Of a stretch of 64,000 nucleotides of DNA, positions 4,443-34,960 are shown in pieces (position 1 is the first letter of the stretch; each line of letters starts with the position of its first letter). Source of the stretch: an uncultured delta proteobacterium. GTDB taxonomy: Bacteria; Desulfobacterota; Binatia; Binatales; Binataceae. The stretch is taken from assembly GCA_963724765.1 (NCBI GenBank), contig CAVRVY010000002.1, forward strand, positions 497,166 through 561,165, given 5' to 3'. Both the position numbers and the translations under genes were made by a program. Below the pieces are notes generated by a model that worked only from the letters and a program-made list of their open reading frames with translations, searched no databases and had not been told where the DNA came from.

Positions 4443-4519
4443 TGGCGCCCCCTGCGGGATTCGAACCCACGGCCCCAGGATTAGGAATCCTGTGCTCTAT
4501 CCATCTGAGCTAAGGGGGC
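4443..4519 (-). tRNA. tRNA-Arg(CCT), reconstituted at the left att site
   Basis: Cloverleaf on the minus strand: acceptor GCCCCCT/AGGGGGC, D arm GCTC/GAGC, anticodon arm CAGGA-TTCCTAA-TCCTG, T arm GTGGG-TTCGAAT-CCCGC, G-CCA end; 77 nt. Confidence 0.97.
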
Positions 4520-4521
4520 GC
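4481..4521 (+). repeat. Left att core (41-bp direct repeat)
   Basis: ttaggaatcctgtgctctatccatctgagctaagggggcgc, identical to 59483-59523. Confidence 0.95.
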
Positions 4522-4532
4522 GCCAATATTTC

Positions 4533-5795
4533 TTATGTTTTCAAGGCATTTAGCGGCTTTATCGATTTGAGCCGACCCGCCTGACGTGATTTAGTGCCCA
4601 CTTTTTGCCCACTTTTTTCGGGATTCGGGAGGAACCCCTGCGCGAAGCGGTCGGCCGCGCCCGTATCGGAATCCTTGAACCAGTGTGAATAGACCTTCAG
4701 CGTTACTGCCGGGTTCGAATGACCAAGGCGATGCTGCACCTCGGTGATCGGTGCGCCAGACGCTATCAGCCCGCTCGCATACGAGTGCCGCAACGTCTTG
4801 ATGTTGGCGTCCCTGAGCCCCGCGCGCCGCAGCGCGGGATATAAACCCTGGCGCAAGACATTCGAGCGATGCAGGGGTTGACCATCGAGGCGACAAAACA
4901 CCAGATCGTGTTCCGACCTCGGGCTCTGCAGCTTCCAAACCTTCAAGGCGGCAATCAGCCCCGCCGGCAGAGGCATCGTGCGATATCCTGAGCGCGTTTT
5001 GGGTTCGTAGAACTTCGGGCGCACACGGCCCTCTTCATCGGTCTTGCGTGCCCACGACAGCGAACGCCTCACAAAAAGCCGACCGTCGTCGAGTTGGATA
5101 TCGGTCCACTTCAGCGCGTAAGCCTCCTCGGGTCGCAGCCCTGTGGCCGCGACCGTCGCGAACAACGTACGGTGAAGGCCCGGCTCGGCATGATCGAGCA
5201 ATCTTCTGATCTCCTCGGCGGTCAGTACCTCGTCTGGTCTCACGGCCCGCAATCCTTGACCGCTCTCCGGACGGTCCGCGTCCGTAGTTACTTCTGCAAC
5301 CTCCCTACGTGGCCTCTCCGCGATTGCTGCCGGGTTCGTTGCGGTGTAGCCGCGCCGGATCGCAAGCTTAAACACCGCGGCACATGTCGTCAGAACCGCG
5401 CTCACGGTCTTGGCGCCTAGTTTCGTGCACAGCTCGTCGCGGACGCTCTCGATCAGCGCAACGTCGATCCGATCGAGCCGTAGGTTGTCGAGCTTCGCCA
5501 GGTGGCGCAGGTGAACACGCCAGCCTCCAAGCGTCGCGGGATGGCGATTCGATTTCTCGCGCATCCACTCTTCGCCGACCTTCGCAAAAGTTGGAATCCT
5601 CGCGGGATCGACGTACTCGCCGCGGGCGGCCTTGACGGCCGTGGTGGCGAGGTATTTTTCAGCGGCTTTCTTCGTCGGGAACTCAATCCGCTTCCGTGGT
5701 CCCGTCAGTCCTTGCGGCCGATAGTCGAGCCGCCAGGTGCAATCGCAATCGCCGCCCATGCATGCGGGCTTGTGATACCGCTTGATCAAAGCCAT
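4533..5795 (-). CDS. int: Tyrosine recombinase/integrase
   Basis: TGLRPEE (R), LRHSYAS (HxxR region), LGHSNPAVTLKVY (H, Y); N-terminal arm-binding-like region. Confidence 0.95.
   Translation of the reverse strand: MALIKRYHKPACMGGDCDCTWRLDYRPQGLTGPRKRIEFPTKKAAEKYLATTAVKAARGEYVDPARIPTFAKVGEEWMREKSNRHPATLGGWRVHLRHLAKLDNLRLDRIDVALIESVRDELCTKLGAKTVSAVLTTCAAVFKLAIRRGYTATNPAAIAERPRREVAEVTTDADRPESGQGLRAVRPDEVLTAEEIRRLLDHAEPGLHRTLFATVAATGLRPEEAYALKWTDIQLDDGRLFVRRSLSWARKTDEEGRVRPKFYEPKTRSGYRTMPLPAGLIAALKVWKLQSPRSEHDLVFCRLDGQPLHRSNVLRQGLYPALRRAGLRDANIKTLRHSYASGLIASGAPITEVQHRLGHSNPAVTLKVYSHWFKDSDTGAADRFAQGFLPNPEKSGQKVGTKSRQAGRLKSIKPLNALKT
4594..4613 (+). promoter_or_regulatory. Putative integrase arm-type sites (TGCCCACT x2)
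   Basis: Tandem TGCCCACT with 11-bp period; the same pair recurs at 59356-59377 near the other att. Confidence 0.6.
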
Positions 5796-7969: not shown

Positions 7970-8640
7970 AATAGCGTTCGAATCGACGACCTGCTGATTA
8001 CGAAACTCTTCTCTACCGCGAAGATGGTGACAGAAGGTGACGCAGCGATTTTCGCGTGACCAAGAAATGCCTGTCAGACAGGGACATTCAGTGACAACCG
8101 CTGATTTTGAATCATCATCGAGGCCCAGGAAGCGCGCCATATCGGATTTTCCGCCAATGCAGGCATCGCCAGTGCCGTATCATGACCAGTCCTCAGGTCC
8201 TCGCGCAGCGTTCTCGCCAGATACTTGAGAATGTCCAGAAATCCGCGAGCCGCCGCAGTAAGCACCGCTTCGGTGACGACGCGTAGTGGCGCGGCGAAGG
8301 TCCGCCGCAGTCGCCCGGTATCGCAGTCAAGAACCTCTTTAACTCGCGCGAGCTTTCTGGATCGGACCGCGCGGATGAACCTGCCGACCGCCGCTTTCGA
8401 CAGATCGGGCGCCAGAGGGCCACCATTCTATCGCGGTCCGCGCGTTGTTCACCAAGTAAAAAGATGATCGGGGCAAGCATAACCATGCCCCACTCGCTTC
8501 ATCGTGCGCCGCGACAGCCCGTTCGGCTGAAGATCCTCGGCGCTTCGTGGCGGCGAGGCGATTTTGTCCTTGAACCATCCGAGAACCTTGCCCATGTGTA
8601 GCCTATAAGTTACAATCAACGAGGTTCGCAGGTATCAATA

Positions 8641-9234
8641 ATGGCTATCATCAAGATCAATCCAATCAGGATCGAGGGGCGATGGCGCTCCGGCATCGCG
8701 CTGGATCTGCACACAACGAGCAGCACGCCGATCGGACCTAACGAATTTGGACATATGCAGTTTGACACGGTGCGGCCAGCGATCGCTGAACTGCTTTATC
8801 GATTGAAAAACCGGGCCGACCGCGAGGCGGCGGTGCCAATAATTGAGACGGCGGCGAGCTTCTTGTCGGACCAGCGCGACAAATTCGACGCCATCGTGCC
8901 AGTGCCTCCGTCACACCACCGAACCGTACAGCCGGTTATCATTCTCGCTGATGGAATCGGAAAAGCGCTGAGCGTTCCAGTTCTCTCGTGCATTAGGACG
9001 ACTCGACCGACATCGCAGTTGAAGGACATCACTGAACCTGAGGAGCGGAAGAAGCATGTCGAAGGGCTCTATGAAGTGGACGTAGAGCAAACGCGCGGAC
9101 TAAAGCTCCTTCTTTTCGATGACCTTTTCCGTTCTGGAACGACCATGAATGCGATCACGGATATACTGCTCAATCCGGGCAAAGCGAGGGTCGTCCGTGC
9201 CCTGACCATCACCAAGACACGGAGCAAGCAATGA
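8641..9234 (+). CDS. ComF-like type I phosphoribosyltransferase
   Basis: IVPVPPS and PRPP-binding LLLFDDLFRSGTTM; ATGA overlap with the next gene. Confidence 0.85.
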   Translation: MAIIKINPIRIEGRWRSGIALDLHTTSSTPIGPNEFGHMQFDTVRPAIAELLYRLKNRADREAAVPIIETAASFLSDQRDKFDAIVPVPPSHHRTVQPVIILADGIGKALSVPVLSCIRTTRPTSQLKDITEPEERKKHVEGLYEVDVEQTRGLKLLLFDDLFRSGTTMNAITDILLNPGKARVVRALTITKTRSKQ

Positions 9235-10172
9235 ACACGATTTTTATTGGTGGCTCGCGGCACGTCTCTCGTTTGCCGGCAGAGGTGAAAAGACGTCTGG
9301 ACAATGTAGTTACCAGCGGTCACCAAGTCATTGTCGGTGACGCAAACGGGGCCGACAAAGCCGTGCAAAAGCATCTTCTGGATAAGCGTTACGATAAGGT
9401 CGTCGTCTTCTGCACGGGCGATACCCCAAGAAACAATTTAGGAACCTGGCGCACGCATCATGTTGATATACCCAAAAATACTAAGGGATTTCATTTCTAC
9501 GCGGCTAAGGACCGCGAGATGGCGCGTGAAGCTGATTTTGGATTGATGATCTGGGATGGCAAAAGCCCCGGCACGGTTCTTAACGTGATGCGCCTCGCAA
9601 TCGCCGGAAAGATTGCCGTTCTTTTCAACGTGCCTGAGAAAAACGTCGTCAACATCAAGACATTGGACAGTTGGAAGAACTTCATCTCCCATTGTAGCCG
9701 AGATGTCCAAATGGAGATAAAGCAGCGGGCCACTCCTGAGGAATGGCGGCTCGCCGAATCCAATAATCAAGCGAGCTTTTTGCCGTCGCTTGATGAGGCG
9801 GGCGCTGCACTTAAGAGCGCGCCCCAGCGAGAGTCCTCCTCGGAACCCCTGAACTCAAGTGCGTTGGAGGAGGTTGTCAAAGTACTGAACCGTGCGTTAG
9901 CTCACGGTGATGCAACCGCGATAATGAACCAACTTGGCATCATTGCGCGCGAACGTGGGATGAGTCACGTCGCGCGCGAAACTGGTCTTGCGCGTGAAAG
10001 CCTTTATCGGTCTCTCGACGCAAAAGGGAATCCCGAATTCGGCACGGTCTTAAAAGTGCTCGCATCCATAGGCCTGCGGCTTGAGGCTAAATCGGAAAGC
10101 CTTCCGACCGCACCCGACCAAGACCAGTCGTCCCTTGGAATGCCCGGAAGAGGAAAGCCGGGAATTGCATGA
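9231..10172 (+). CDS. SLOG (YspA/DprA-like) domain fused to an HI1420-type antidote HTH
   Basis: IFIGGSR, VGDANGAD, KDREMA, WDGKSPGT; C-terminal GMSHVARETGLARESLYRSLDAKGNPEFGTVLKVL. Confidence 0.8.
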   Translation: MNTIFIGGSRHVSRLPAEVKRRLDNVVTSGHQVIVGDANGADKAVQKHLLDKRYDKVVVFCTGDTPRNNLGTWRTHHVDIPKNTKGFHFYAAKDREMAREADFGLMIWDGKSPGTVLNVMRLAIAGKIAVLFNVPEKNVVNIKTLDSWKNFISHCSRDVQMEIKQRATPEEWRLAESNNQASFLPSLDEAGAALKSAPQRESSSEPLNSSALEEVVKVLNRALAHGDATAIMNQLGIIARERGMSHVARETGLARESLYRSLDAKGNPEFGTVLKVLASIGLRLEAKSESLPTAPDQDQSSLGMPGRGKPGIA

Positions 10173-10271
10173 CGGATTGGGGACAATAAAAGGCCGATCT
10201 GTTCTGATCTTGCAGGGAGACCGGTTCATATCGGCGCTAACCTACTCACAACCGCGAGTCCGATCGAGAAA

Positions 10272-11624
10272 ATGGAAACCGCGCAAACCAACACACCTGA
10301 CTCTCACGACGTGACGTTGCGGTCTTTATTGAAGCTACGGAATGGTTCGAAGAATATTCTGCAGAATCGCGAGAATTCGCAGCTGGAATTCAAGGAAACG
10401 TTCAATCTTGGCAGCCTTGCGAAATATGGCCGTACGATGGCGGCTTTCGCCAACAACAGGGGTGGCTACATCGTCTTCGGCGTTGAGCCCTCTCCCCATC
10501 GCCTGAAAGGTGTGAACAAAACCAAGTTCGAGGAGTGTGACCCCGCGCAAGTAACGCAGTTCCTGAACGCTCACTTCGGCCCCGAGATCATCTGGGAAAT
10601 GGAAACCGTCGAATTCTTCGGGACATCGCTCGGCTACATTTACATTTCTGAGGCAGATGAAAAGCCGGTCGTCGCCATATCAAACGCGGCAGATATCAGA
10701 AGCGGAGAAGTTTATTTTCGGTACAAAGGTCAGACTTCGACCATTCGATACCCAGAGCTCAGAGCAATTATTGACGCTCGAATTACGCGTGAGCGACAGG
10801 CGTGGCTTCAGCACCTCCGTACGATTGAGCGGGTTGGTCCCCGAAATGTCGGCATCCTCGACACCATCCATGGAAAGCTTTATGGGGCCGGGACTCCGTT
10901 TTTGATAGATGAGAAGCTGCTACGGCAGCTTAAATTCATTCGGCGTGGTCAGTTTTCCGACGGCGAGGGGGCGCCGGCCCTGCGCGTGCTTGGAGATGTG
11001 CAATCGATCAAGGGTATCGAGAAAGAAAAGCCCGTGCCGACCGGTATCCACGCTGACGATTTGATAACGGCATTTTTGGCGCAACGGCCTTTGGACGAAT
11101 CGGAGGCTCGAAGCTATCTGAGGGAGGCCACGTATCAGAACACGCCGTACCTGCCGATCCATTACCTCGTCAATCTTTCCGGGTTGTCTCAATCGGAGGC
11201 CCAGGGCCTTATCAAGACAAGCCAGTCGTCGCTGACGGGCCAAAAGAAAAATCTCACTGAAAGAATTGCGCGAGATCAGGCCGTGAAGCTAATGGGTACC
11301 GTACAATCCGCTCCCAATATCTTGACCTCCACGGAATTTGAAAGGTCATTCGAGCAAGCTAAGACCGTCAAAGAACGGCGTTCTCTTCTTGTTGCGACAA
11401 TGCTGCGAAGCCCGAGGTTGTTGCAAGAATTTGTACCCAGCCTGCCGCTCGGGCTGTTATCCGAAGCCGTAACCCACCTCAATACGTCGGATCTTCGAAA
11501 GCTTAAGGGAGACCTCCTCGAACTTCTCCTGAGCGCTTTCGCGAACCGCTTTCAGGACGCGTCGAGTTCGGAAAGATCAGCTTTCAGGAAGGCCGTGGCC
11601 TTCTGCGACGAAAAGCTGAATTGA
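10272..11624 (+). CDS. Schlafen/AlbA_2-domain protein with an unrecognised C-terminal region
   Basis: RENSQLEFKE...MAAFANNRGGYIVFGV AlbA_2 signature. Confidence 0.82.
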   Translation: METAQTNTPDSHDVTLRSLLKLRNGSKNILQNRENSQLEFKETFNLGSLAKYGRTMAAFANNRGGYIVFGVEPSPHRLKGVNKTKFEECDPAQVTQFLNAHFGPEIIWEMETVEFFGTSLGYIYISEADEKPVVAISNAADIRSGEVYFRYKGQTSTIRYPELRAIIDARITRERQAWLQHLRTIERVGPRNVGILDTIHGKLYGAGTPFLIDEKLLRQLKFIRRGQFSDGEGAPALRVLGDVQSIKGIEKEKPVPTGIHADDLITAFLAQRPLDESEARSYLREATYQNTPYLPIHYLVNLSGLSQSEAQGLIKTSQSSLTGQKKNLTERIARDQAVKLMGTVQSAPNILTSTEFERSFEQAKTVKERRSLLVATMLRSPRLLQEFVPSLPLGLLSEAVTHLNTSDLRKLKGDLLELLLSAFANRFQDASSSERSAFRKAVAFCDEKLN

Positions 11625-11844: not shown

Positions 11845-12726
11845 CTAAGAGAGCCGACCGAGGATGTAATCGGCGGCGCGCTGCGCATGGGCGGCAGCAT
11901 GGATCATAAGCTTGCGGTCAGCACGAAGCCGGTTTAACCAGCCAGAGACGTATGCGGCTTGGTTCTGGATGACCGCGTTTGAGATTCCGGCTTCGGCACA
12001 GAGGAATGCGGCTCCCAATTCCGCGCACAGTTCTTCTTTCGAGTAGACGGCGGAACCGAACGGGGCGGCTTCGCAAACCCCTTCTCGCGCAAGGCGTTTC
12101 TCACTTCCAGAACTATGGACGCTCTCATGCATCGCAGTGGCGTAAAATTCCTCGGCGCTGGTGAAAAGTTCACGCGGCGGCAGGGTGATGCGATCGGTAA
12201 TCGGACTATAGAAAGCTTTGGAGCCTGCGTACTGAATCTCGGGCGGGTTGGGCATGCCGGCGATGATCCGCTCGGCCGCTTCGATCGGATCGTGCTTGTG
12301 CGTCTCGACCTTCGGCAGCTTGTCGAGCACTGCCTGCGGCAGTTCGCATTGTTCGAGGTTGAACAGGCGATAATATCTGAGCAGGAACCGGCGGCGCGTC
12401 TTCCCGCCGGTCTCCTCGTTGTCGAGGTCTTCCGTGCTCTGCTTGGCATCGTCAACCTTCCAGAACACGACAACCGTGCTCTCCTCGCCTTTGCGGATGT
12501 GTCCGCCAAGTTCGTTCGCCTGGCGCATCGTCAGCCAATACGGTGAAACGTATTTGGATGCCGAGAGCAGAAAGTGGTTGATGCCGCGATATGGCTTCTT
12601 GCTCACAAGGTTGCGCGGTAGTCCGGTTGAGGTCCACGGCCTGCGCCACGGTACCACGCCGCTTTCAAGCAGATTGATGATCTTTTCGGTCACGATTGCG
12701 TAGATGTCCATTTCCGTAGTCTCCAA
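11845..12726 (-). CDS. ardC: ArdC-family antirestriction protein (ssDNA-binding plus zincin domains)
   Basis: PWRRPW, YRGIN, WLTMRQA, IRKGE, HESVH, YSKEELCAELGA. Confidence 0.92.
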   Translation of the reverse strand: METTEMDIYAIVTEKIINLLESGVVPWRRPWTSTGLPRNLVSKKPYRGINHFLLSASKYVSPYWLTMRQANELGGHIRKGEESTVVVFWKVDDAKQSTEDLDNEETGGKTRRRFLLRYYRLFNLEQCELPQAVLDKLPKVETHKHDPIEAAERIIAGMPNPPEIQYAGSKAFYSPITDRITLPPRELFTSAEEFYATAMHESVHSSGSEKRLAREGVCEAAPFGSAVYSKEELCAELGAAFLCAEAGISNAVIQNQAAYVSGWLNRLRADRKLMIHAAAHAQRAADYILGRLS

Positions 12727-12785: not shown

Positions 12786-13181
12786 CTAAAAGGGGATGTC
12801 GTCGGAAGCTTCAGCCTTGGACGTGTTCCCGTTCGAGCCGTTGCCGAGCAGGCGGAGTTGTCGCGCGACGATTTCGGTCCGGTAGCGCTTGCCGCTGCCG
12901 TCCTTGGCTTCGTACTGGCGGGTAGTGAGCCGACCTTCGACGTAAACTTGCCGGCCTTTGCCCAGGAACCGCTCGCAGGTGTCGGCCAGCCGTCCGAACG
13001 CGACGATCCGGTGCCAATCGGTGCGCTCCTGCTTCGCGCCGTTGCGGTCCGTAAACCGCTCTGTGGTGGCCAACGAGAAATTCGCCACGTTCTGCCCGGA
13101 CGGCAGGGCACGAACCTCGGGGTTAGCTCCCAGATTGCCGATCACGATCACCTTGTTGATTGCCATAGCCATAACCTCCAT
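12786..13181 (-). CDS. ssb: Single-stranded DNA-binding protein
   Basis: NKVIVIGNLGANPE, TDWHRIV, VYVEGRL, C-terminal DDIPF. Confidence 0.95.
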   Translation of the reverse strand: MEVMAMAINKVIVIGNLGANPEVRALPSGQNVANFSLATTERFTDRNGAKQERTDWHRIVAFGRLADTCERFLGKGRQVYVEGRLTTRQYEAKDGSGKRYRTEIVARQLRLLGNGSNGNTSKAEASDDIPF

Positions 13182-13366: not shown

Positions 13367-13854
13367 TCGTGCTTGTATGGTGTCCACTGCCGATGCTGCT
13401 GCTCGCTCATAGTGAAAGAGGAACTGAACATTTTTTCCCTCGACCTTGTATGTGTTGAAGAACCAACTTTTCCCCTCGCGCCCTCACTTGATAATGGGTG
13501 CGAGGGAAAAGTTGATTGGGGACGTGGGGGTGGATGTGCGGCTAAAAAATCTGAGATGCGCTGCCGCGACGATCTGCGGAGGCGGGCCAGGATTCTTTTC
13601 CTGGCCAACGACGCCGATCGTGGCGAGCCAACCAATGAATGAGATCGGCTAAGATGCGAAAAAAGTTTCCCGAAGAGGTGTCGCCGCCGGCCGTGCTGAA
13701 GGGTAATTCCTTGTGCGCTAGATTGGCGCCCTCGTCCGGGGCTCAGGGCTCGAACGGTATCCAGAGGCGCAAGCGGCGTCCTCGAATGGACAAGCAAGAG
13801 CGTGAGTTCCGGCTCCGAGGCTCGGGGAACCAAGTCGTGGAAGGAGGAAGGTTG

Positions 13855-15052
13855 ATGAGGTTTGCGGGAATCGACGTCGGAGCGGAGCGTCACATGGTGG
13901 CAATGGTGGATACGGAGGGCAAGGTGCTATGTCGTTCCAGCCCTTTTGGCGAGGACGCGTCGGGCTATGCGCATCTGTTCGAGCTGCTCGGCCCACCCGA
14001 GGGTTGTCTGCTCGCCTTGGAAGCCACTGGACACTACTGGCGGAATCTATTCGTCGCTTTGTTAGCAAAGGGCTACGCAGTCGCGGTGTTGAATCCATTG
14101 CGTACGCGGCGCTTTGCCGAGGAGGAGCTGCAGCGGACCAAGACCGACGCGATCGATGCGTTGGGAATCGCGCGGTTTGCTGCCCAGAAGCGACCGCCAG
14201 CGACGCAACTGCCTGACGTCGCGACGGAAGAGCTGCGTGAATTGGCGCGGCTGCGCGAGCGGCTCCAGGAGGACTTTGCGAGCCGTCTGAGGCAGTTACA
14301 TCGAGCGGTTGACCTTGGCTTTCCCGAGTTCACGCGGTATGTGCGCACGCTCGAGAGCCAGCTCGCCGCTACCATTCTGTCGCGCTACCCAACTGCGGCG
14401 TCGTTTCGTGGGACGTCGCGTAAAGAAGCTCGCTCGGATCGTTTACGACGGTTCGCACAAGATCGGTGAAGAACTCGCTCGCGCTCTGATCGAGGCAGCC
14501 GCAAAGTCAGTCGGGAGTTATCACTCCGAGCCCTACCGATTGCGGATCAAATACCTCTGCGAGGATCTTGATGTGCTGCGCCGCCGGCTGAAGGATCTCG
14601 CGCGCGACATTGAAAGCAAGATCGACGATCACGAGGTAGGCAAACTCCTAACGACGATCGATGGGATCGGACCATTAACCGCCGCCTGTCTGATTGCAGA
14701 ACTCGGAGATCCGGCACGCTTTCGCAGTGCCGGCGCGATCGCGAGCTATGTTGGCGTTGCGCCACGACTGCGGCAATCAGGGAAAAAGCGCTTCTTTTCC
14801 GGCAGCCCCACTATTCCGTTCGGGAATGCTCGTCTGCGCAAGGCGCTCTGGATGGTGGTTCTCAACGCCGTGCGATGCAATCCGTGGCTGCGCCAGTATT
14901 ACGAGCGCCTTCGGGCTGCGGGCAAACCGGGCAAGGTCGCCGTAATCGCAGCGATGCGAAAGCTGCTCGCAGCGGTATGGAGCGTGGCTATTCACCGCCG
15001 ACCCTTCGTTCCGCACCTATCTCCACCCGCAACCGCCAGCGTCGTGACGTAA
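13855..15052 (+). mobile_element. IS110-family recombinase/transposase, one frameshift near 14420
   Basis: GIDVG, LEATGHYW, KTDAIDA (DEDD); IDGIGPLTA...YVGVAPRLRQSG (catalytic Ser), GNARLRKAL. Confidence 0.92.
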
Positions 15053-16518: not shown

Positions 16519-18243
16519 GTGGATCGTTTGGTCCCTCGAACCGGGCCAGCCAGGGAGACCGGAGCGGAGGACGCTACGGCACAAAAAATTGAGGAGCCGT
16601 TGCAACGGAGCTTTACGTCTCGACCGATGGAACACGAGGCGGATTTTACTGGAGATCGAGCCGGTAGTCGTTATCAGCTCCTTCTTCAGGTTCTTGAGCT
16701 GGCGGAGGCGCCATTCAGCGTCAGCGCAATGCTGGGGGCGCTGGCGAGCGTTATTGAATCGGTAGTCCCGGTGGACGCGATTCCCGTCGTAACGGTGGAT
16801 GAGCAGGTCCTGCGTTTCTACGCGGCTTACTTCAACGGGGTGCCGCGCAAGGATGGCGATTCGCTCGCGGATTATGCGATGCGAGCTCTGCGCCGGTGTC
16901 CTGTCGGGCGGGCGGAAGCGCGTGTGCTGGAGACCTTCCCAATCCGTGGTTCAGCAACTGAGCACGTGGGCCGCACCCGCGGTGTGCTGGTGCGCCATGG
17001 TTTGGATCGCGAGCCGCTCTTCCTAGGTGACCGGCGGCTGCGGTGGTACGGGATGAACTCTTACGTCCGGGTTCCTCTGTTTGCCAAGGAACGGCTGCTT
17101 GGCTCGATCGCATTCTGTCGAACAGACGCCCGCCCTGGCTTCACCAACAACGAGGTTCAGATTCTGACTGAAGTCTCACGGCCCGCAGCGATCGCGCTTT
17201 CTCGTTTTCTGGCTTACGAGGAGATCGAGCGCTTGCGGCACAGCAGTTTCCCCTGGGTTACAGGTGAGGATCACCCAGCCACTGACGAGATAATAGGTAC
17301 CTCGGAAACGCTTCGGCGGGTGATTGAGCGGGTGAGCAAGGTGGCGCGGACCGATGCCCCGGTTTTGATTTCAGGTGAGACCGGCACCGGCAAGGAATTG
17401 CTCGCGAATATGCTGCATCAGCTGTCTGGGCGGCGCGGCCGATTGGTCAAGGTGAATTGTGCAGCCTTGCCCGAAACCCTGATGGCCGCCGAGTTATTCG
17501 GCCACGAGCGAGGCGCATTCACCGGTGCCTGGCAACGCCGCGAAGGCCATTTTGAGACCGCGGCTGGCGGCTCGATTTTACTTGACGAGGTCGGCGAACT
17601 ACCGCCGCCTGCGCAGGCGGCCCTGCTGCGGGTGCTGCAGGACGGAGAATTCCAGCGAATCGGTGGCAGCCGGACTCTCCGGACGAATGCGCGAGTGATC
17701 GCTGCGACAAACCGCAGCCTAGTCGAGGCGGTTCGTCAAGGCCGTTTCCGTGAGGACCTCTTCTATCGACTCAATGTAGTGCCTATCAGGGTGCCGCCTT
17801 TGCGCGAGCGCACCGAAGACATTGTCGAATTGGCGAACCGCTTCGCAGCGCGTTACTCGCAGGCTATGGGCCGCACACCAGGCGTCTTCGAGCGCGAAAC
17901 ACTCGATGCGTTGCTGTCGTATGCGTGGCCAGGAAACGTTCGCGAGTTACAAAATGTGATAAGGCGAGGAGTAGTCCTTTCCAATGGTCCAGCGATCGAC
18001 CTGGACGACGAATTCCTAGGACAAGTGCATGGAGTGGAAAACCCGGCCACAGTGATCGGAGCCAAGGTAAGTGGGTGTGAGCGGGAACTGATTGAACAGG
18101 CTCTCAAAAAAGCAGCAGGAAAAGTCGCTGGTCCGAAAGGGGCCGCTGCACGGCTGCGCATAGCGCCTTCCACGCTTGAGTATAAGATAAGAAAGTACCA
18201 TATCGATAAGCTCCATTTTCGTGCCGACGCGGCAGGCGACTGA
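16519..18243 (+). CDS. GAF-domain sigma54 activator (FhlA/NifA-like)
   Basis: GAF (SYVRVPLFAKERLLGSI), GETGTGKE, GAFTGA, WPGNVREL, C-terminal HTH; start may be 16627. Confidence 0.9.
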   Translation: MDRLVPRTGPARETGAEDATAQKIEEPLQRSFTSRPMEHEADFTGDRAGSRYQLLLQVLELAEAPFSVSAMLGALASVIESVVPVDAIPVVTVDEQVLRFYAAYFNGVPRKDGDSLADYAMRALRRCPVGRAEARVLETFPIRGSATEHVGRTRGVLVRHGLDREPLFLGDRRLRWYGMNSYVRVPLFAKERLLGSIAFCRTDARPGFTNNEVQILTEVSRPAAIALSRFLAYEEIERLRHSSFPWVTGEDHPATDEIIGTSETLRRVIERVSKVARTDAPVLISGETGTGKELLANMLHQLSGRRGRLVKVNCAALPETLMAAELFGHERGAFTGAWQRREGHFETAAGGSILLDEVGELPPPAQAALLRVLQDGEFQRIGGSRTLRTNARVIAATNRSLVEAVRQGRFREDLFYRLNVVPIRVPPLRERTEDIVELANRFAARYSQAMGRTPGVFERETLDALLSYAWPGNVRELQNVIRRGVVLSNGPAIDLDDEFLGQVHGVENPATVIGAKVSGCERELIEQALKKAAGKVAGPKGAAARLRIAPSTLEYKIRKYHIDKLHFRADAAGD

Positions 18244-18434: not shown

Positions 18435-19700
18435 ATGATGGATCCAGAAAAATTGATAAACTTAGAGCGCAAGACCGTCAGCCCGCGGGTTTTTTCCGAT
18501 CCTGAAGTCCATCAGGCGGAGCAGGAACGGGTCTTCACGCGATGCTGGCTGTACGTCGGACATGATAGCCAGGTGCCGAACCCGGGCGACTTTGTCAGCG
18601 GCTTTATGGGAGAAGAGCCGGTGATTGTATGTCGCGGGCCCGACCGGCAAATACGCGTGTTCCTCAATACGTGCCGGCATCGCGGGATGCTGGTGTGCCG
18701 GGTGGAAGAGGGCAACGCGAAATTTTTTCGATGCCCCTACCACGGATGGACCTACGATCTTGAGGGAAACCTGACCGGCGTTCCGGACTACCGTAAGGCT
18801 TATCACGGCGACCTCAAGCGTGAGGAATGGCCATTGCTGCAGGCGCCCAAGGTCAGTTCCTATCATGGGCTGATCTTTGCCTGCCTAGATGAGCATGCAG
18901 TCAGCCTGGAAGAGTACCTTGGAGATTTCCGGTGGTACCTGGATCTGCAGTTCAACCGTACCGAGAGCGGGATGATGACGCTGCCGGGTACGCACAAATG
19001 GACGCTCAAGGCGAACTGGAAGTTTGCCGCCGAGCAATTTGGCGGCGACAACTACCACGCGATGTGGGCCCATGAGAGCGGCGTCAGAATTTCCCTCGCG
19101 CAGCAGTTTGGCGGCGAGCATCCGTGGACCAACGACTGGGAAGCGAAGACCAAGGAAGGTCATGGCTGGATAAATTTTGCTTTCGCGGATCCGCCGGGAA
19201 TCGCGGAAGTCGTCGGCCCCTACACGGCGTGGCTGCGCGAACAGGCGCGCAATCGCCTGACGCCCACTCAGATCGAGCAAATCGGATGCGTACACGTGGG
19301 AACCGTGTTTCCGAATTTCTCGATACTCTCGTTCCTGGGATTTCTGTCCGTGCGCGTCTGGAATCCGCGCGGGCCGACGCAGCTCGATGCGTGGTCATGG
19401 GGAATGGTCGAACGTGATGCGCCGGCGGAAATAGTAAAGCTCGCGCGCGACATCCAGATACGTACTTTTTCGCCGGCGGGAATCTTCGAGCAGGACGACG
19501 GCGAGATGTGGTCATACTGCACCGAAGCGTCGGGCGGTGCGTACCGCCGCCGATTTCCATTGAACTATCAGATGGGAGCGGGGCATGAGCGGGCCGACGC
19601 CGATCGTCCAGGCCTGATCCATCCACCCCCGACTGAGATCGGCGTGTTCGGTTTTTGGGAACGCTGGCGCCGGCAAATGGCCAACGAAGGAACGCGATAG
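18435..19700 (+). CDS. Rieske aromatic ring-hydroxylating dioxygenase, alpha subunit
   Basis: CRHRG...CPYHGW Rieske motif; NWK, DNYHAMWAH, EQDDGE mononuclear Fe site. Confidence 0.95.
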   Translation: MMDPEKLINLERKTVSPRVFSDPEVHQAEQERVFTRCWLYVGHDSQVPNPGDFVSGFMGEEPVIVCRGPDRQIRVFLNTCRHRGMLVCRVEEGNAKFFRCPYHGWTYDLEGNLTGVPDYRKAYHGDLKREEWPLLQAPKVSSYHGLIFACLDEHAVSLEEYLGDFRWYLDLQFNRTESGMMTLPGTHKWTLKANWKFAAEQFGGDNYHAMWAHESGVRISLAQQFGGEHPWTNDWEAKTKEGHGWINFAFADPPGIAEVVGPYTAWLREQARNRLTPTQIEQIGCVHVGTVFPNFSILSFLGFLSVRVWNPRGPTQLDAWSWGMVERDAPAEIVKLARDIQIRTFSPAGIFEQDDGEMWSYCTEASGGAYRRRFPLNYQMGAGHERADADRPGLIHPPPTEIGVFGFWERWRRQMANEGTR

Positions 19701-19702
19701 TC

Positions 19703-20200
19703 ATGGATCGCGTCGGTTTGCGACAGCAGCTCGAAGAGCTGCTCTATCGAGAGGCCTGGTTGCTGGATCAGGATCGGCTCGAAGAGTGGCTGGATCTGCT
19801 CAGTGAAAACATTCACTACTGGGCGCCCGTGCGGGCCGACATGAATCGAGGCAAAGAGGACTTCAGTCCGCCGCTCAGATTGGCATTCTTCGATGACAAC
19901 AAGGACGGGCTCAGACTGCGCGTCGCCCGGATTCGCACCGGCGCTGCGCATGCCGACGAGCCGCCCTCACGCGTGCGTCACCTGATAACTAACGTTCAGG
20001 TAGTGGAAACGCCGGACGCGGAAACGGCGAAAGTCGCCTCAAATTTCCTGGTATTCAAAAGCCGCCGCAACCGCGAAGAGAACCTGTTCGTCGGATGCCG
20101 GGAGGATACCTGGCGGCTCCACGGTGGCGCATGGAAGCTCGATGAACGAATGATCCTGCTCGATCACAACGTGATCGAGAACATCACGGTGCTCTTCTGA
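19703..20200 (+). CDS. Ring-hydroxylating dioxygenase, beta subunit
   Basis: LYREAWLLDQ...EWLDL, PPSRVRHLITNV, GCREDTW. Confidence 0.92.
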   Translation: MDRVGLRQQLEELLYREAWLLDQDRLEEWLDLLSENIHYWAPVRADMNRGKEDFSPPLRLAFFDDNKDGLRLRVARIRTGAAHADEPPSRVRHLITNVQVVETPDAETAKVASNFLVFKSRRNREENLFVGCREDTWRLHGGAWKLDERMILLDHNVIENITVLF

Positions 20201-27118: not shown

Positions 27119-27829
27119 TCACCGTGAGCGGTTCAACGAACCCATCATTTCCACCTGCTCAGTCGCGACGAGCAGTTCTGGACCTTCGTTCTTAACGCTG
27201 TTGGCGAGGGGAGATGCGGGTTGCGCGAGCAGGAGATCGTCAGGCGCGGGAATCAGCAGCCGTTTGGGCGAAAGCGGGTCGGATTCGGTAGAATTCATCC
27301 AATCATCAGCGGCACGGCCGTCGAGAATGACGGGCATTCGGTTATGAATGGGCCGCATCAGCGCATTTGGCTCGCAGGTGATGATTGTGAAGGTCGTCTC
27401 GGGCCGCTCCTTTTCGGGAAACCAGTCTTCATATAAGCCGGCGAAAAGGATCAGCTTGCCATCGGCGCGATGAATCCACATGGGCCGCCGCGCACTTTTC
27501 GGGCCGGTCCATTCGTAAAATCCGTCCGCCGGCACGACGCATCGCCGCTTCTTGAAGGCGTCGCGGAACGACGGGCGCTCCTCGACGGTCTCGCCCTTGG
27601 CGTTGATGCATTGGGTGGCACGCGAGGTGTCCTTCGCCCAGCGATTAACTAGGCTCCAGCGCGCGGGGACGATCTTTCGGGTTTCGTACTCAGTTATGAG
27701 GATGAAGAGGCGCTGCATCGGCGCAGCGTTGTAGCGGGGCGTATAATCGGGCAACTGCTCGGGTGGAACACCCAACTCGGCAGCAAGCGAGTTGCGATCG
27801 CCGCGCGTCAGCGTGTATCGACCACACAT
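27119..27829 (-). CDS. SOS response-associated peptidase (SRAP/YedK/HMCES)
   Basis: N-terminal MCGRY, RCVVPADGFYEW, IHNRMPVIL. Confidence 0.93.
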   Translation of the reverse strand: MCGRYTLTRGDRNSLAAELGVPPEQLPDYTPRYNAAPMQRLFILITEYETRKIVPARWSLVNRWAKDTSRATQCINAKGETVEERPSFRDAFKKRRCVVPADGFYEWTGPKSARRPMWIHRADGKLILFAGLYEDWFPEKERPETTFTIITCEPNALMRPIHNRMPVILDGRAADDWMNSTESDPLSPKRLLIPAPDDLLLAQPASPLANSVKNEGPELLVATEQVEMMGSLNRSR

Positions 27830-28183: not shown

Positions 28184-31100
28184 TTAGACGGTCTTGCCTA
28201 CCGGGGCTTTTTCGAGTTGCCTGCGTTCGTCTTCGAGCTTGTTTTTGCGCTTTTTCAGGTCGGAAGCGTATGACTTGAGATTTTCGAGGTCGCTCGCGAC
28301 CTCATCGTGAGCAGGAAGTACACTCCCTGCCGCTAAGGGCTTGTCGTGGCCTGAGTACTCCGATGCCCGCTTCATCCCAAAAAAGACGCGGCGATAGTCT
28401 TCGTCCTCGACGCGCACGCCCTTTAATGATTGGGTCGCCACGTCACGCTGAAAACGCCCTACAACATCGTTCAGGAGGAGTTCTTCAACGAGGCGCTCCC
28501 AAGTCTCACGCAAGTCGCTGTAGAAATCCTTGACCTTCTCACGGTAAGCGTCCCTCGAGGATTCAGGGATTTTGCGGAGAGCCGCTAGTGTTGTGTCCCA
28601 TTAATAAGTTTACAGATGCGCTGGAGTTTGTTGAATATCGAGTCGGCGGTGGCAGTCCAGACGAAGGGCCGCTTGTGGGCATTGTAATGAGCCACGTAGG
28701 CGTCGATCTTCCCCACCAGTTCCCGGACGTTGCGGAACGAGCCGCGGCGAATCGCTTGCTGGGTGATAAGCGCGAACCAGCGCTCGATCTGGTTGAGCCA
28801 GCTTGAGTAGGTGGGCGTGAAGTGAAGGTGAAAGCGCGGATGGCTGGCGAGCCACGCTCTGACTTTGGGATGCTTGTGAGTCGCGTAGTTGTCGGCGATC
28901 AGGTGCAGTTCAAGATCGGCCGGCATATTAGCATCGAGATGTTTCAAAAAGCTCAGGAATTCCTGGTGGCGATGGCGCGGCTTGCACTGGGAGATGACCC
29001 CGCCGTCGACGATGTCCAGTGCCGCGAAGAGCGTGGTAGTGCCGTGACGATAGTAATCGTGAGTCACTCCCTCGACATAACCGAGCCCCATTGGCAGCAC
29101 TGGTTGGGTGCGCTCCAAGGCCTGCACCTGGCTCTTCTCATCCACGCACAATACCAGCGCGTTGTCCGGCGGATTAAGATAAAGCCCAACGATGTCGCGG
29201 ACCTTTTCGACGAAGAACGGGTCGGTGGACAGCTTAAAGCTCTTGCTCCGATGTGGTTGCAGGCCGAACAGCGCGAAGTAGCGCGCGACCGTGCTCTTGG
29301 AGATGCCAGTATGCGCCGCCACGCTGCGCACGCTCCAGTGGGTGGCGACGGCGGGCTTGCTGTGCAGTACCTTGCGCAGCAAGCCCGCTACCTGTTCGTC
29401 GCTATGGCTGCGCGGTCGGCCCGGACGAAGTTCCGCGTGCAGCCCGGCGATGCCGCGTTGCTGATAACGCTGGCGCCACAGACTGACCACCGGAGCACTA
29501 ACCCCGCAGCGCCTGGCGACCTCTCTGTTGGCGGCGCCAGCGGCCGACAGCAGCACGATCTGTGCGCGCCGCACCAACGAATGCGGCAGGCTGCGCGAAC
29601 GCACGATCGAGCGCAGTTGCGACCGCTCCGACTGAGTAATCATCAAGGCTGCATTCGGCCTGCCCATCCCATTCAACCTCCACCGGACCATAGCAGATGG
29701 GCCTCACTCCTGTAAAGTTATTTGTGGGACACAATACTAGTTTGCGTTCGAGGTCGCCCAAGCGGGCCGTCACTTTTTTGGCCTGCCACGGTTCTTCGTT
29801 GCCGAAAACGGTTCCAAAGCCTAGCTCTGGCGTGCGCCGAATCCAGTGGCAAACGATCGGTACGGTTTGCTCTGCGGCCGCAAGGCGCAGCTCGTGGTAA
29901 AAAACCAAGTCATGGGTAAACACTATGACCTGGCGCCCGTTTCGAGCTTCGACGACGAGGCGGCGTGCGACGCGGCGTGTGCGCTGGCAATCAAGCGATG
30001 AAACGGGGTCGTCGATGATGATTCCGCTGTGGTCGGCGATGCCATCTACCTCGGCGAGAAAACAGCCGATCGCGAGCGCACGGAACTCGCCGTCGCTGAG
30101 AATTTCCTTGTTACGAACCTTAACGGCTGCCTCAAGTCCTACACCGATGTAGCTCGCACCGTGGTCGCTCCGGTCGTGAATCTTGAAAGGAAGGTAACCC
30201 AATTCCAAGTGTTGGATTTCCCTCGAAAGTCTGTTTTCGAAGCCCGTCGTGAGGTGTTGCTTCCGCAACTCCGTATTCTTCCGGGAGATTGCGGTGGTAT
30301 CGCAAGCGCTCCTACAGGCTACGACACGACTCAGTAGATCCAGGTCCTCTCGACGCTTGAGCAGTGCGGGCAAGCTGACGGAAAGTGTTTTTCGTGCACG
30401 ATTATTCTTTACCTTCGCTTCGAGTTGTTTGCGAGCCTCTGGACTTTTCATCGCATCGTGGCTCGCTGCCTTAACCTCCAAGCGAGCGCGGGCGGCGTCG
30501 AGTTCAGGGGCCGGGCCTTGTGGGAGGTCGGGGACTTGTTCCCACTCGCCACTGGTGAATGCGGTTAGAATGTTTTTCTTACTGAGAGTCAAGGCATCGA
30601 GATAGGCGAGTACTTGCTCCATGAGAGCGTTCGCCTCAGGGTCCTCACTTATCAGGGACTCCATCATGGCCTGAACATCGGCGCGCGGACGAAGCAGAAG
30701 CCGCTCGACATTACTCTTTGCATCCTCGCGAGTTCGTTCCTCGTGCGCTGCGTGAGCCTCCGCGGCGCCCTGCACATATTTGTCGAAGCTTTTGAACCGA
30801 GTAATCGCGTCTGGATCAAGAATTTGCTGGCAGAGGACGCAACGTGCTCCATCACGCGTAACAGGAAATAAATCGTTCGGATACGCGACCGCGCTGTATT
30901 CCTTGGCGTACCGGAAGAGAAGCCTCCAAGCGTTTGATCCGAATCCCAAGAGGACGTCGCCGGCTGTTGCCTGTGCTGCCGCGAGCCTTGCCGCTTCCCT
31001 TGCGGCCTTTGCTGCTTCGCAGGCGCGGCGGTAGCCTTCCGCAGCTTGTCGGTCCAGCCTTGAGGTTGCTGCCTGAAGGGCTTGCTCGATTGTGCTGATG

Positions 31101-32266: not shown

Positions 32267-34960
32267 TCAAATTGTCTGTTTGTATTCCCTGAAGCCATCA
32301 ATCAATTGTTGAAATGAGGTTGGCTTGTACTTCTTGAAACTCTCTTCGTCCACGTAAACAAAGTCGTATTTCACGTCCGGCCTGCACCCGATTGATGTCT
32401 TCGCACCATTGCCGCAGCCGTTCCATCTTCAGCGGCACATCCAGGTCTTCCTGCCCTTTGGTTTCGACAATAAAAATCCGCTGGTCGGACAGCTTGACCA
32501 GAAAATCCGGGTAGTAGTTGGAAATGTCGCCGTCCGCATTCACGTAGTCCAGCTTGAAATTCACCGCCAGATAATTCTTGGCGTAGGAAATCACGTCGTC
32601 GCAGTCGTCCAAGAAAGCGGGCGAACAGCAGCTCAAGTTCGCTGTCGCCGATGATGCGGTTGAAGACGCTCTTCTTCGGGACGAGGTAGCCCTGGTCCTT
32701 TGCCACAAAGGGCCGCGTTTGCCGCAGCTTGATTGTGTCGCGGATTTCGGCGTCGCCCTTGTCCTGCACGGTCAGAGCATTGATCGCCTTCTTGAACGTC
32801 TCGATCAGGGTTTTGGTGGCGGCCAGTTCCGAGAGGTTGCGCAGCGTGTTCGGGTCTTCCAGCTCCACCGGACGGTCAAACAATTCGGTCTGCACAAAGG
32901 CTTTGACCTTGCCGTACAGCACGTCGTAGCCGCTGACCAGCCGCAAATCCTTCATGATGGTTTGCGCGAAATAGCCGATCACGCTGCGGTAGTCGGCAAC
33001 GCCTGCCGTATCGAGGATGGTGGTATGCGTCACCTCGCCGGTGGTGATGTCCTTGAAGACGATCTCCCGCTGTTGTTCCTCGCTGAACTGCAGGTAGGCC
33101 ACGCGCTGATGCGCCAGCGCGCCGACATCCAGATCGCTCAGGTTCTTGTATTCGCGATAGATGCGGGGCGTCAGCACGGGGATTTCAATATCCAGCGCGT
33201 CGATGTCTTTCTTCTCGTTTTCCTTGTCGATCTCCACCACCAGCGGGGTTTTTGGCTGGGTGCCTTCGCCCATCGGCTTGCGCTCCAGCACCACGCCTTC
33301 GGCCTGGATGGATTCCACGAAATCCATGAAAGCATCCGTGCCAACGACGCTGACGTATTCTTCCACGCCGCCGGGATACATCTTGCGCAAGCCGCGCCCG
33401 AGCGTTTGCTCGGGCAGGATGTTGCTCTTGGCGGAATAGGCGCGCAGCCCCACAATGGTGGTGACGTTGCGCACGTCCCAGCCCTCTTTGAGCACCATCA
33501 CGGAGATGATGGCTTTGTAGGGGCTGTCCAGCCCGTCGATCGCGTTGGCTTGCTCGCGCAGCTAGTCCAGTTCCTCTTTGCTCTTGCCCGACGTCGATTC
33601 GGAAATCTCGCCGTTGTTCTTGGTGTGAATCACCAGCACCGCGTCTTTCAGATCGGGATAGTGGCCTTCCAGATACGCGGCCACGTCGTCGCAGTTGCGG
33701 GTGTCGTCGGTCATCACGAACAGGATGGCTTTCTTGCCCATCTTTTCGTGCTCGGCATACGCCTTGCGCCATTCGATCACGCCCAGATGAATGTAGTCGG
33801 CGTATTTCTCGGTGAACTTGGCGCTCTTGCGCTCCACCAGTTTGGCGCGGCTGGGAGCATCGGGCAGGACGGGATGCTTCACCACGTTTTGCGAGATGGC
33901 TTCCACCAGCGGGTAATCGGCGACTGTCTGCACGAAAATCGCGCCGTTGTTGTGCCTGGGCGTGGCGGTCACGTCCACTTGCAGCGAGAGCGCGGACCCC
34001 TTTTGCTTCAGCCGGTTGTGAATATCCTCGATCGATTTGAACCACGCCATGCGCGGGTCGTGAATGTGGTGCGCTTCGTCGTTCAACACCACCAGTTCGT
34101 CAATGTCCCGCACGATCATGCCCAGGTCCACTTTGGAGTCGGTGGTCGCGCCGCTCGGCCGCTTGCCCAGGAAATAGTCCATCGTGTCTTCGTCATCGGG
34201 CGAAGCGGGAATGTCGTCGCCGGCATAGACGCGATGGATGTTGGTCAGGAAGATGTTGCCGGTGGGGCGGGTGATGCGCACCTCGTCCTGCACGTGCAGG
34301 GTCAATTGAAAATCGTCGCGCCAGTTGCGCCCATCGAAGCCGTCGTCGGGCAAGACCGGGTCGTCTTTCAAGAAGATGCGCAGGCCCTGAAAATCCTTGT
34401 AGATGCGGTCCAGCACGATGATGTTGGGGGCGATCACCAGAAAATTGCGCGCCAGTCCTGATTCCGGCTCGTACAGTTTGTGGAAAAAGCTCCACGCCAG
34501 CACCAGGCTCAGCACCTTGGTCTTGCCGGTGCCGGTCGCCATTTTCACCACGAACCGCCGCCAGGTCTCGTCAAACATCCCGGCCGACACCGCACCGGAA
34601 CTGTCGAAGCGCATCAGGTCGTACTTGTCCTTCACGCCCACCACGTCGTACAGATAGATGATGGTTTCCAGCGCCTCGCGCTGGGCAAAGTAATATTGAA
34701 ACTCGGCCATCGTGCCGTCAGCCTTGCGGCATCAGGTGCGGCGTATTGAACCACCAGTTGAGCAGGCTCTTGCTGGTGTCCGTCGCTCCCGCATAGCCGC
34801 TGTCCCGCCATTCCTTCACTTTCTTGCGCAGTTGCGACACCAGCGGCGGCATCAGCTTTTCCGAGCTGGACTCCCGCAGTGCTTCATCCGCCGGAAACCA
34901 GCGGATAGCCGGGTCGAGGATGGCGTAGGGCGATTCGGGAAAGTTGGGATGCAGCGCCAT
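32267..34960 (-). CDS. res: Type III restriction subunit Res (frameshifts plus an in-frame TAG at 33562)
   Basis: KMATGTGKT, NDEAHH, TATP, LKEGWDVRNV, QTLGRGLR, YYPDF...VETKG. Confidence 0.88.

Follow-up and report, generated by a model that had tools for sequence, protein, structure and literature searches.

What is the function of a free-standing phosphoribosyltransferase (PRTase) whose gene overlaps that of an antitoxin-like DNA-binding protein on a mobile element? This question is raised by two overlapping genes in a stretch of 64,000 nt (the window) from an uncultured delta proteobacterium of the Binataceae (assembly GCA_963724765.1, contig CAVRVY010000002.1, positions 497,166-561,165 of the forward strand). 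Gene 1 encodes a ComF-like PRTase of 197 aa, and gene 2 encodes a protein of 313 aa in which a SLOG-fold domain is followed by a helix-turn-helix (HTH) domain (Table 1). The two genes probably form a toxin-antitoxin (TA)-type cassette carried as cargo of an integrative conjugative element (ICE), in which the PRTase would be harmful and the SLOG-HTH protein would both neutralise it and repress its own transcription. The toxicity, the neutralisation, the substrate and a role in phage defence are what we infer from published work on related PRTase effectors. The initial annotation of this DNA had described a stand-alone ComF-like PRTase coupled by an ATGA overlap to a SLOG::HTH protein, and this description was borne out by the open reading frames (ORFs), the profile searches and the structure models.

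The pair was examined in the best 80 loci among at least 482 coding relatives of the SLOG protein, each from a different species-representative genome, and all 80 were collected with the SLOG protein as the query. They spanned Alphaproteobacteria, Binatia, Vulcanimicrobiota, Acidobacteriota, Xanthomonas, Pandoraea, Dyella, Luteolibacter, Thermodesulfobacteriota, Myxococcales and Planctomycetota, and the occurrence of the cassette was patchy and cross-phylum at 65-95% identity. Relatives of ORF1 (1458 at E<=1e-3) and of ORF2 (3108 at E<=1e-3 within the length range searched) were so numerous that neither frame can be due to chance. The conserved pairing, whose absence the initial annotation had named as a refutation, was found: 71 of the 80 loci had a PRTase coding sequence directly upstream of, and on the same strand as, the SLOG gene (69 at E<=1e-5 and two remnants at 1e-3). 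In the window, the ATG of gene 2 (9231-9233) overlapped the TGA of gene 1 (9232-9234), and in all 51 intact PRTase genes the TGA overlapped the SLOG start codon, which was ATG, GTG or TTG (NTGA). The pairwise identities of the two proteins were correlated (r = 0.83, a value reached by none of 2000 permutations), which shows that the pair was inherited as one unit, although it is not proof of binding. No tested gene of the window travelled with the pair as a conserved third member across the 80 loci: the Schlafen, sigma-54 activator and SSB (single-stranded DNA-binding protein) genes were found in none of them, the integrase in one and ArdC in three. HTH-less SLOG proteins were still paired with a PRTase (L063, L070, L077, L081 and L087), and on Klebsiella IncFII/IncR and Sagittula plasmids a ComF-like PRTase was followed by a SLOG-only protein of ~185 aa, adjoining RepA or a resolvase. 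The core of the cassette is the PRTase and the SLOG domain, whereas the part that binds DNA can be missing or replaced by another.

Gene 1 is a ComF-like type I PRTase and not a ComF orthologue. The phosphoribosyl pyrophosphate (PRPP) loop on a five-stranded core, which defines the type I PRTases, was present in the protein, and the structure was predicted with a mean pLDDT (predicted local distance difference test) of 91.9. Foldseek matched the model to the PRTase domain of PurF (3.4e-6), with APRT, PurF and ComF spanning 1e-5 to 1e-6, and aligned it with H. pylori ComF (7p0h) at a query template modelling (TM) score of 0.60 and a root-mean-square deviation of 4.8. The Pfam profile PF00156 scored 25.1 bits, slightly below its cut-off of 26.3, and TIGR00201 comF scored 46.4 bits (E 4.3e-12) against a cut-off of 233.55. 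Members of the ComF family carry an N-terminal zinc finger. In gene 1, a three-stranded β unit at residues ~18-44 took the place of this finger, no cysteine occurred in residues 1-116, and the first one was C117; neither the score nor the zinc finger of the ComF family was found. The PRPP loop residues L157, L158, F159, D160, D161, G166 and T168 were invariant in 42 aligned PRTase homologues, as were R94, Q97, P98, K128 and R136 and, in the N-terminal β unit, D22, H24 and T25. Purifying selection acts on the catalytic loop, which speaks for gene 1 encoding an active enzyme. The top PADLOC match of gene 1 was the C-terminal PRTase of PsyrT (2.2e-15, positions 571-687 of 689), and the ShosT model gave a weak, partial match (1.1e-5, positions 66-214 of 237). 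ShosT was not among the first 50 listed fold matches of the model, nor among the matches of the PRTase profile in a PDB sequence search, which were weak PRPP-loop matches only. A search of a phage collection returned six weak PRTase matches, none of full length.

Gene 2 was modelled with a mean pLDDT of 87.9, and its residues 1-178 formed a Rossmannoid domain of alternating β-strands and α-helices. At normal thresholds this part had no Pfam or PADLOC match, and when the SLOG-HTH profile was searched against PDB sequences, only HTH/HigA-type matches were returned and none for the SLOG part. By fold, all informative PDB matches of residues 1-178 belonged to the SLOG superfamily (LOG, ShosA, MoCo carrier, the TRPM N-terminus, DprA and YpsA), with Foldseek probabilities of ~1.0 and target TM scores of 0.46-0.59, and the domain has the fold of this superfamily. 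LOG (2a33, 1.2e-3) was the top match and ShosA (8zva, 1.4e-3, TM 0.36-0.37) the second, and YpsA (2nx2) matched at 1.1e-2. Among the viral models of BFVD, a protein of a Streptomyces phage named “DprA-like” ranked first (7.8e-7, TM 0.66), and many proteins named “YspA cpYpsA-related SLOG” or DUF2493 matched at 1e-5 to 1e-3. An alignment of 36 SLOG domains contained 38 invariant columns, many of them polar, including the motifs GGSR (7-10), GDANGADK (36-43), KDR (93-95), WD (108-109) and S-G-T (112-115) and the residues N118 and R121. The domain had initially been called YspA-type, which agreed with the structural matches to YspA/DUF2493 and DprA-like proteins and disagreed with the sequence comparisons. 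The YspA-related profile PF10686 was matched by one of 47 members (E 0.1), the DprA profile PF02481 gave sub-threshold matches in 32 of the 47 (best E 4.4e-4; 14.8 bits for gene 2 of the window against a cut-off of 29.6), and the LOG and YpsA (DUF1273) families gave no sequence match at E<=10 among these members. Alignment of the SLOG profile with E. coli Smf by hhalign was not significant (E 0.96) and paired VGDANGAD with SGLARGID only (GxAxGxD). In a protein atlas the nearest clusters were unnamed, and one DprA-named cluster at 0.92 was a lead only. The SLOG domain of gene 2 represents a SLOG family of its own, close to DprA and YspA.

This family was large and was found in several other contexts. 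With a profile of the SLOG domain alone, 2324 clusters (50% identity) were retrieved at E<=1e-3, and 411 clusters at <=1e-30; most had 180-200 aa. In a survey of 41 of the longer proteins among 150 listed SLOG relatives, the domain was fused to the HI1420 HTH, HTH_37, the antitoxin domain YhfG, an N-terminal NADAR (P0340, P0342), DUF4326 (P0375), a C-terminal HEPN_AbiU2 (P0250) and Abi_alpha (P0254); P0312 was listed with these fusion proteins. The HI1420, HTH_37 and YhfG partners are of the antitoxin type, in keeping with an antitoxin role of the family. The fusions to NADAR, DUF4326, HEPN_AbiU2, Abi_alpha and YhfG suggest that conflict systems may use the family repeatedly as a module for sensing or as an antidote. 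No full-length copy of the NADAR-SLOG protein was found in plasmids.

The HTH domain of gene 2 was identified as that of an HI1420-type antitoxin by PF21716 dnstrm_HI1420 at residues 213-286 (E 4.5e-21, 75 bits against a cut-off of 27) and by TIGR02684 (85.2 bits, cut-off 53.7). The nearest PDB entry by sequence was HigA (6af3, E 0.003), and the model placed helices at residues 209-279. Antitoxins of the HI1420 type are normally partnered by RelE/ParE-like toxins. Gene 2 has the dnstrm_HI1420 HTH and lies downstream of the putative toxin gene, and a RelE/ParE-like toxin is absent from the cassette.

A candidate operator for this HTH was found in the promoter of the cassette. The promoter is sigma-70-like, with TTGCCC and TACAAT separated by 17 nt (nine of 12 consensus matches), and a CTTGCC −35 motif occurred at the same offset in related loci. 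Alignment of the 120 nt before the PRTase start across loci revealed a palindrome with the consensus TGTARCC-N4-GGYTACA. The copy in the window was the sole match at <=2 mismatches in 64 kb, where 0.15 would be expected by chance. Exact palindromes were present in 33 of the 80 loci, each as a single copy; at <=2 mismatches, 53 loci carried the palindrome at a distance of 612-651 nt upstream of the SLOG gene, and all loci together contained only four hits elsewhere. Of the 67 HTH-bearing loci 52 had the palindrome, and of the 10 HTH-less loci none had it (Fisher p = 3e-6). The difference persisted among loci that retained the 5' end of the PRTase gene (52 of 58 with the HTH and 0 of 4 without it, p = 4e-4). 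This co-occurrence fits self-regulation by gene 2, as had been supposed at the outset. In one example, a distant pair on a Sinorhizobium plasmid, the SLOG domain was joined to HTH_37 and a different perfect palindrome of 16 bp lay upstream.

The two genes decayed unequally. Both were intact in 48 of the 80 loci, the PRTase was disrupted or absent beside an intact SLOG gene in 21, the SLOG gene was disrupted beside an intact PRTase in 2, both were damaged in 6, and 3 loci were cut by contig ends. PRTase loss was due to in-frame stops (2 loci), frameshifts (8), an N-terminal truncation (1), C-terminal remnants (6) or complete absence (4), and the two SLOG disruptions were both frameshifts in “MFD” metagenome-assembled genomes (MAGs). 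Single-gene point lesions numbered 10 in the PRTase and 2 in the SLOG gene (binomial p = 0.002, allowing for gene length, the PRTase gene being the shorter). One PRTase frameshift was found in an isolate genome, that of Roseiarcus fermentans (L018), and finished Agrobacterium vitis plasmids contained a two-piece PRTase beside an annotated “antidote” gene. Solitary SLOG-only genes were found on conjugative plasmids of Mesorhizobium and Methylobacterium. The asymmetry fits the PRTase as the toxin and the SLOG protein as the antitoxin, which is the polarity first proposed.

The cassette lies on mobile DNA here and is found elsewhere on plasmids and in defence islands, a distribution that also fits a TA role. 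The G+C content was 0.53-0.54 over positions 8500-11500 and ~0.60 on either side, and the surrounding ICE of ~55 kb is inserted at a tRNA-Arg gene, both of which agree with the lower-GC cargo suggested by the initial annotation. The full-length SLOG-HTH protein was found on 14 plasmid records, including Xanthomonas phaseoli pXAM48, Agrobacterium plasmids and a Brucella anthropi plasmid, and a near full-length relative of the PRTase on 58; 41 of 67 matching records were typed as conjugative. Neighbours were inspected in 24 of the 80 loci, chosen with full flanks and from varied taxa, using the three nearest greedily called ORFs on each side. A defence or mobile-element gene was among them in 13 of the 24. 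The defence genes included type I restriction-modification, Mrr, Gabija-like UvrD+OLD, Cap17-like, SAVED-2TM, HEPN/Toprim and AAA_15/KAP genes, and the mobile-element genes included type IV secretion, ParA, transposase, prophage capsid and ImmA/IrrE genes.

The cassette was compared with PsyrTA, reportedly described by Sberro in 2013, with ShosTA, reportedly described by Millman in 2022, and with other PRTase systems. PsyrTA/RqlHI is similar in combining a toxic PRTase domain with a SLOG (DprA-like) partner whose gene lies downstream and overlaps slightly, but its PRTase is fused to a RecQ-like helicase in a protein of ~690 aa, whereas the PRTase of the window is helicase-free. The model of its partner PsyrA/RqlI gave no PADLOC match for gene 2 at E<=0.01, and gene 2 has the additional HTH. 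Type II TA pairs of the HI1419/HI1420 (HigBA-like) type share with the cassette the PF21716/TIGR02684 HTH, a toxin gene upstream of the antitoxin gene and a palindromic promoter operator; they differ in having a RelE/ParE-like toxin instead of a PRTase, and the antitoxin of the window has an additional SLOG domain of 178 aa. In RqlHI, the PRTase domain of RqlH was needed for genotoxicity and was bound by RqlI (Russell & Mulvey 2015, PMC4670107). ShosTA also consists of a PRTase toxin and a SLOG-fold antitoxin on mobile or defence islands, but ShosT has 424 aa and an extra N-terminal pyrophosphatase-like hydrolase domain, which leaves the PRTase of the window as the minimal form, as initially claimed; ShosT binds PRPP, and its D331A/D332A PRTase mutant loses toxicity (Pu 2025, PMC11961720). 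ShosA, unlike gene 2, has SAM and DprA domains, binds single-stranded DNA and RecA, and is described without an HTH. Gene 2 was not matched by the ShosA model of PADLOC at E<=0.01 and has no SAM domain, and its likeness to 8zva is at the fold level only. A DprA and PRTase unit from a P2-like prophage hotspot, likewise two genes on a mobile element, protects against T7 and lambda (Rousset 2021/2022, 10.1101/2021.01.21.427644); by its description, its DprA-like protein is a full one and is not fused to an HTH. In DS-32, a PRTase is the effector of a validated defence system with NADAR as a different partner (DefensePredictor, 10.1101/2025.01.08.631726), and in retrons PRTase effectors are partnered by a reverse transcriptase and multicopy single-stranded DNA, with that of Eco11 lowering PRPP by about half (PMC12746101). 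The cassette lacks the defining architectures of ShosTA and PsyrTA yet belongs to the same PRTase and SLOG class, so that the expectation of a ShosTA-related but architecturally distinct system held.

The claim that the system is new stood in part. A full-text literature search found no paper on a PRTase with a SLOG-HTH partner, and PADLOC 2.0 recognised the PRTase and not the SLOG-HTH partner. On the other hand, one YpsA-family SLOG branch had already been noted computationally to form a gene pair with a PRTase (Brzozowski 2019, PMC6459960; reportedly also Burroughs 2015), although the description available for comparison mentions no HTH fusion, operator or TA logic. NCBI annotation also already names the pair “ComF family protein” and “addiction module antidote protein”.

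In the mechanism that we propose, the PRTase of gene 1 would be the harmful partner and would use PRPP and thereby disturb nucleotide or DNA metabolism, as is expected from its likeness to the PRTase moieties of ShosT, RqlH/PsyrT and the retron effectors. Gene 2 would be translated in step with gene 1 through the ATGA overlap, and its SLOG domain would keep the PRTase harmless. The leading guess is direct binding, as RqlI binds RqlH's PRTase domain, because the PRTase of the window most resembles the PsyrT/RqlH type. Alternatively, the SLOG domain might bind or process what the PRTase makes. The HigA/HI1420-type HTH, probably as a dimer, would sit on the 18-bp palindrome over the −10 hexamer and repress both genes. 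Upon loss of the element, or when a phage blocks host expression, the antitoxin would run down and the PRTase would be freed, with addiction to the element and probably abortive-infection defence as the outcome. The toxin-first order would be that of HigBA/HI1419-HI1420, with the RelE-type toxin exchanged for a PRTase and a SLOG domain gained by the antitoxin.

Several observations weigh against this mechanism. Orphan PRTases were invisible in a collection of loci based on the SLOG protein, which inflates the asymmetry of decay, and several of the frameshifts come from MAGs, where they could be errors of sequencing. Ordinary housekeeping genes were the neighbours in 11 of the 24 sampled loci. 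The PRTase domain of RqlH by itself was not toxic (PMC4670107), and neither was the PRTase of Eco11 (PMC12746101), so the stand-alone PRTase of 197 aa might need a partner or a trigger. ShosA neutralises ShosT without binding it (PMC11961720; Yang 2026, PMC12961424), so that direct binding cannot be taken as general for such systems. Finally, the SLOG domain has many polar residues that do not vary, and these would be more at home in an active site or a pocket for a ligand than on a surface that only binds protein; together with the NADAR fusions and the DS-32 pair, they leave room for an enzymatic or product-binding antidote.

This last point leads to the alternative that survives best, which we nevertheless regard as rather unlikely. 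In this type IV-like arrangement, the PRTase would phosphoribosylate a cellular target (for example a base, a nucleotide or DNA), and the SLOG domain, as an enzyme or a tight binder, would remove or sequester the product without touching the PRTase; the HTH would only set the level of expression. LOG enzymes, which are SLOG members and include the top PDB fold match of the domain, hydrolyse N-ribosyl-5'-phosphate bonds, the opposite of what a PRTase catalyses. However, the catalytic Glu of LOG, which we take to lie in a PGGxGTxxE motif, appears to be replaced by the invariant N118 in the SLOG domain, and a sequence match to the LOG family was absent even at the permissive threshold given above. 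The conserved polar columns and the fusions to NADAR and DUF4326 are in favour of such chemistry, as are the action of ShosA without contact (PMC11961720) and the DS-32 pair, which its authors liken to DarG (10.1101/2025.01.08.631726). A more specific version is less probable still: the PRTase would mark a nucleobase in DNA, RNA or the free pool, a LOG-like SLOG hydrolase would remove the mark, and the SLOG pocket would report the level of product to the HTH. If true, the cassette would parallel DarT/DarG with new chemistry and self-tuned expression, and the SLOG-NADAR fusions and DS-32 would be versions of one theme.

It is very unlikely that the pair serves signalling, with the PRTase making a small phosphoribosyl signal in response to a cue, the SLOG domain sensing it and releasing the HTH from the operator, like the CARF-HTH protein Csa3, and neither protein being toxic as such. 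SLOG domains do sense nucleotides in Thoeris ThsA, and SLOG proteins are predicted sensors or processors of nucleotide signals (PMC6459960). The fusions to the Abi effectors HEPN_AbiU2 and Abi_alpha resemble sensor-effector proteins, and the CARF-HTH proteins 2wte and 8y75 were among the weaker fold matches of the SLOG domain. Signalling nevertheless leaves unexplained the tenfold excess of PRTase over SLOG decay and the PRTase partners of HTH-less SLOG proteins, and the only genes regulated would be the pair itself. A reverse polarity, with a harmful SLOG protein and a PRTase antidote, or a plain nucleotide-salvage operon is scarcely credible: PRTases are ordinary salvage enzymes, housekeeping neighbours are frequent and an excess of YpsA, itself a SLOG protein, stops B. 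subtilis cells from dividing (PMC6459960), but SLOG genes that are solitary or beside a dead PRTase are too common for a toxin, the HTH belongs to an antitoxin family, the pair is spread patchily across phyla on plasmids and ICEs, and no neighbouring gene is conserved.

Under the TA mechanism, the cassette bears on a class of proven anti-phage or TA systems (ShosTA, PsyrTA/RqlHI and the P2-hotspot system) whose chemistry is disputed, in particular the target of the PRTase and the reason why a SLOG protein serves as the antidote in every case. It represents the pair at its minimum, a PRTase of 197 aa and a SLOG domain of 178 aa, together with a regulatory part that can be read, and it would serve as a compact model of how a PRTase toxin acts and how a SLOG domain counters it. 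The family is widespread in genomes and on plasmids of Agrobacterium, Xanthomonas and Klebsiella, and its recognition would fill an annotation gap for genes that now carry generic names and a partner that the PADLOC models miss.

Table 1. Features of the cassette, of the ICE that carries it and of neighbouring genes (positions in the window)
Feature	Coordinates	Strand	Evidence or remark
−35 hexamer TTGCCC of cassette promoter	8588..8593	+	consensus scan
Operator palindrome TGTAGCCTATAAGTTACA, 18 bp	8597..8614	.	alignment of upstream DNA; 3' of −35, overlapping −10
−10 hexamer TACAAT	8611..8616	+	consensus scan; contributes right arm of palindrome
Gene 1, ComF-like type I PRTase, stand-alone, putative toxin, 197 aa	8641..9234	+	ORF, profiles, model, fold
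PRPP loop of gene 1, LLLFDDLFRSGTT	residues 156-168	+	invariant acidic pair and G-T turn
ATGA start/stop overlap, translational coupling	9231..9234	+	sequence ...gcaagcaATGAacacg...
Gene 2, SLOG::HTH protein, 313 aa	9231..10172	+	ORF
SLOG-fold domain, residues 1-178	9231..9764	+	model pLDDT 95-99, fold matches, invariant columns
Disordered linker, residues 180-203, poorly conserved	9768..9839	+	pLDDT <50 at 180-196 and 198-203; gapped variable columns
HI1420/HigA-type HTH, residues 209-286, putative autorepressor	9855..10088	+	profiles, PDB, model
C-terminal tail and stop codon of gene 2, low conservation	10089..10172	+	ORF, alignment
ICE of ~55 kb carrying the cassette	4443-59523		tRNA, direct repeat, integrase, type IV secretion genes
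tRNA-Arg(CCT)	4443-4519	-	
Perfect 41-bp direct repeat	4481-4521 and 59483-59523		covers 5' half of tRNA gene
Integrase	4533-5795		
Sigma-54 activator 1, 324 aa	6995-7969	+	PADLOC RtcR_PspF2 1.6e-106; no sensor domain, begins at AAA+
Schlafen/AlbA_2 protein, 450 aa	10272-11624	+	PF04326 6.6e-19; weak PADLOC PDC-S50 4.3e-5
ArdC	11845-12726		
SSB	12786-13181		
IS110-family transposase, two overlapping ORFs in different frames	13639-14469 and 14309-15052	+	DEDD_Tnp_IS110 and Transposase_20, respectively
Sigma-54 activator 2, GAF domain	16519-18243	+	precedes ring-hydroxylating dioxygenase genes (18435-20200)
SRAP	27119-27829		conflict-type cargo
DDE transposase	28585-29691		cargo
AAA_13/AbiEii-like ATPase, 846 aa	29498-32038		conflict-type cargo
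TnsA-like endonuclease fragment	32298-32708		conflict-type cargo
DNA methylase	35983-37215		conflict-type cargo
NucS-like nuclease	40694-41512		conflict-type cargo
Type IV secretion genes	~42800-58300		VirB4-, VirB6-, VirB8-, VirB9-, VirB10- and VirB11-like proteins and coupling protein

Some features around the cassette are listed in Table 1 as further cargo of the ICE. The Schlafen gene starts 99 nt 3' of the cassette in the same low-GC patch, and no terminator was predicted between them; it is treated as separate cargo, possibly defensive, because it was absent from all 80 related loci. The ~620 nt between the first sigma-54 activator gene and the cassette promoter (7970-8587) contained short overlapping ORFs on both strands and no convincing gene, and may be a decayed gene. 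The IS110 transposase is probably frameshifted. In four alphaproteobacterial loci, an ORF of ~700 aa with no Pfam match lay directly 3' of the cassette (L009 5923-8019, L012 5968-8106, L013 5910-8111 and L017 5927-8158).

PRTase domains of the gene 1 type were also found at the C-terminus of proteins with leucine-rich repeats (LRRs) and MORN repeats, at 38-49% identity. Thirteen longer proteins with such a domain were found; they gave no significant match to Pfam SLOG families, and the two that were compared with the SLOG profile were negative. P0395, P0397 and P0402 (also P0399 and P0401) are large proteins in which MORN repeats, LRRs or possible β-propellers precede the C-terminal PRTase. 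A PRTase C-terminal to LRR or MORN repeats has the layout of a sensor-effector protein, and this layout appears to be undescribed in the literature searched. A further candidate, P0293, was rejected as a PRTase-SLOG fusion, since the PRTase aligned over residues 1-130 only and the remainder was an out-of-frame read-through to the SLOG start.

Two of the solitary SLOG genes, both without a PRTase, were found near genes of other families. One (L085, 2501-3037) adjoined a pRiA4b ORF-3 gene and had DUF736 ~0.8 kb downstream, and the other (L086, 2432-3037) had DUF736 and a zincin/ArdC-like gene 1.5-2.5 kb away. These genes may be orphan antidotes or anti-defence genes.

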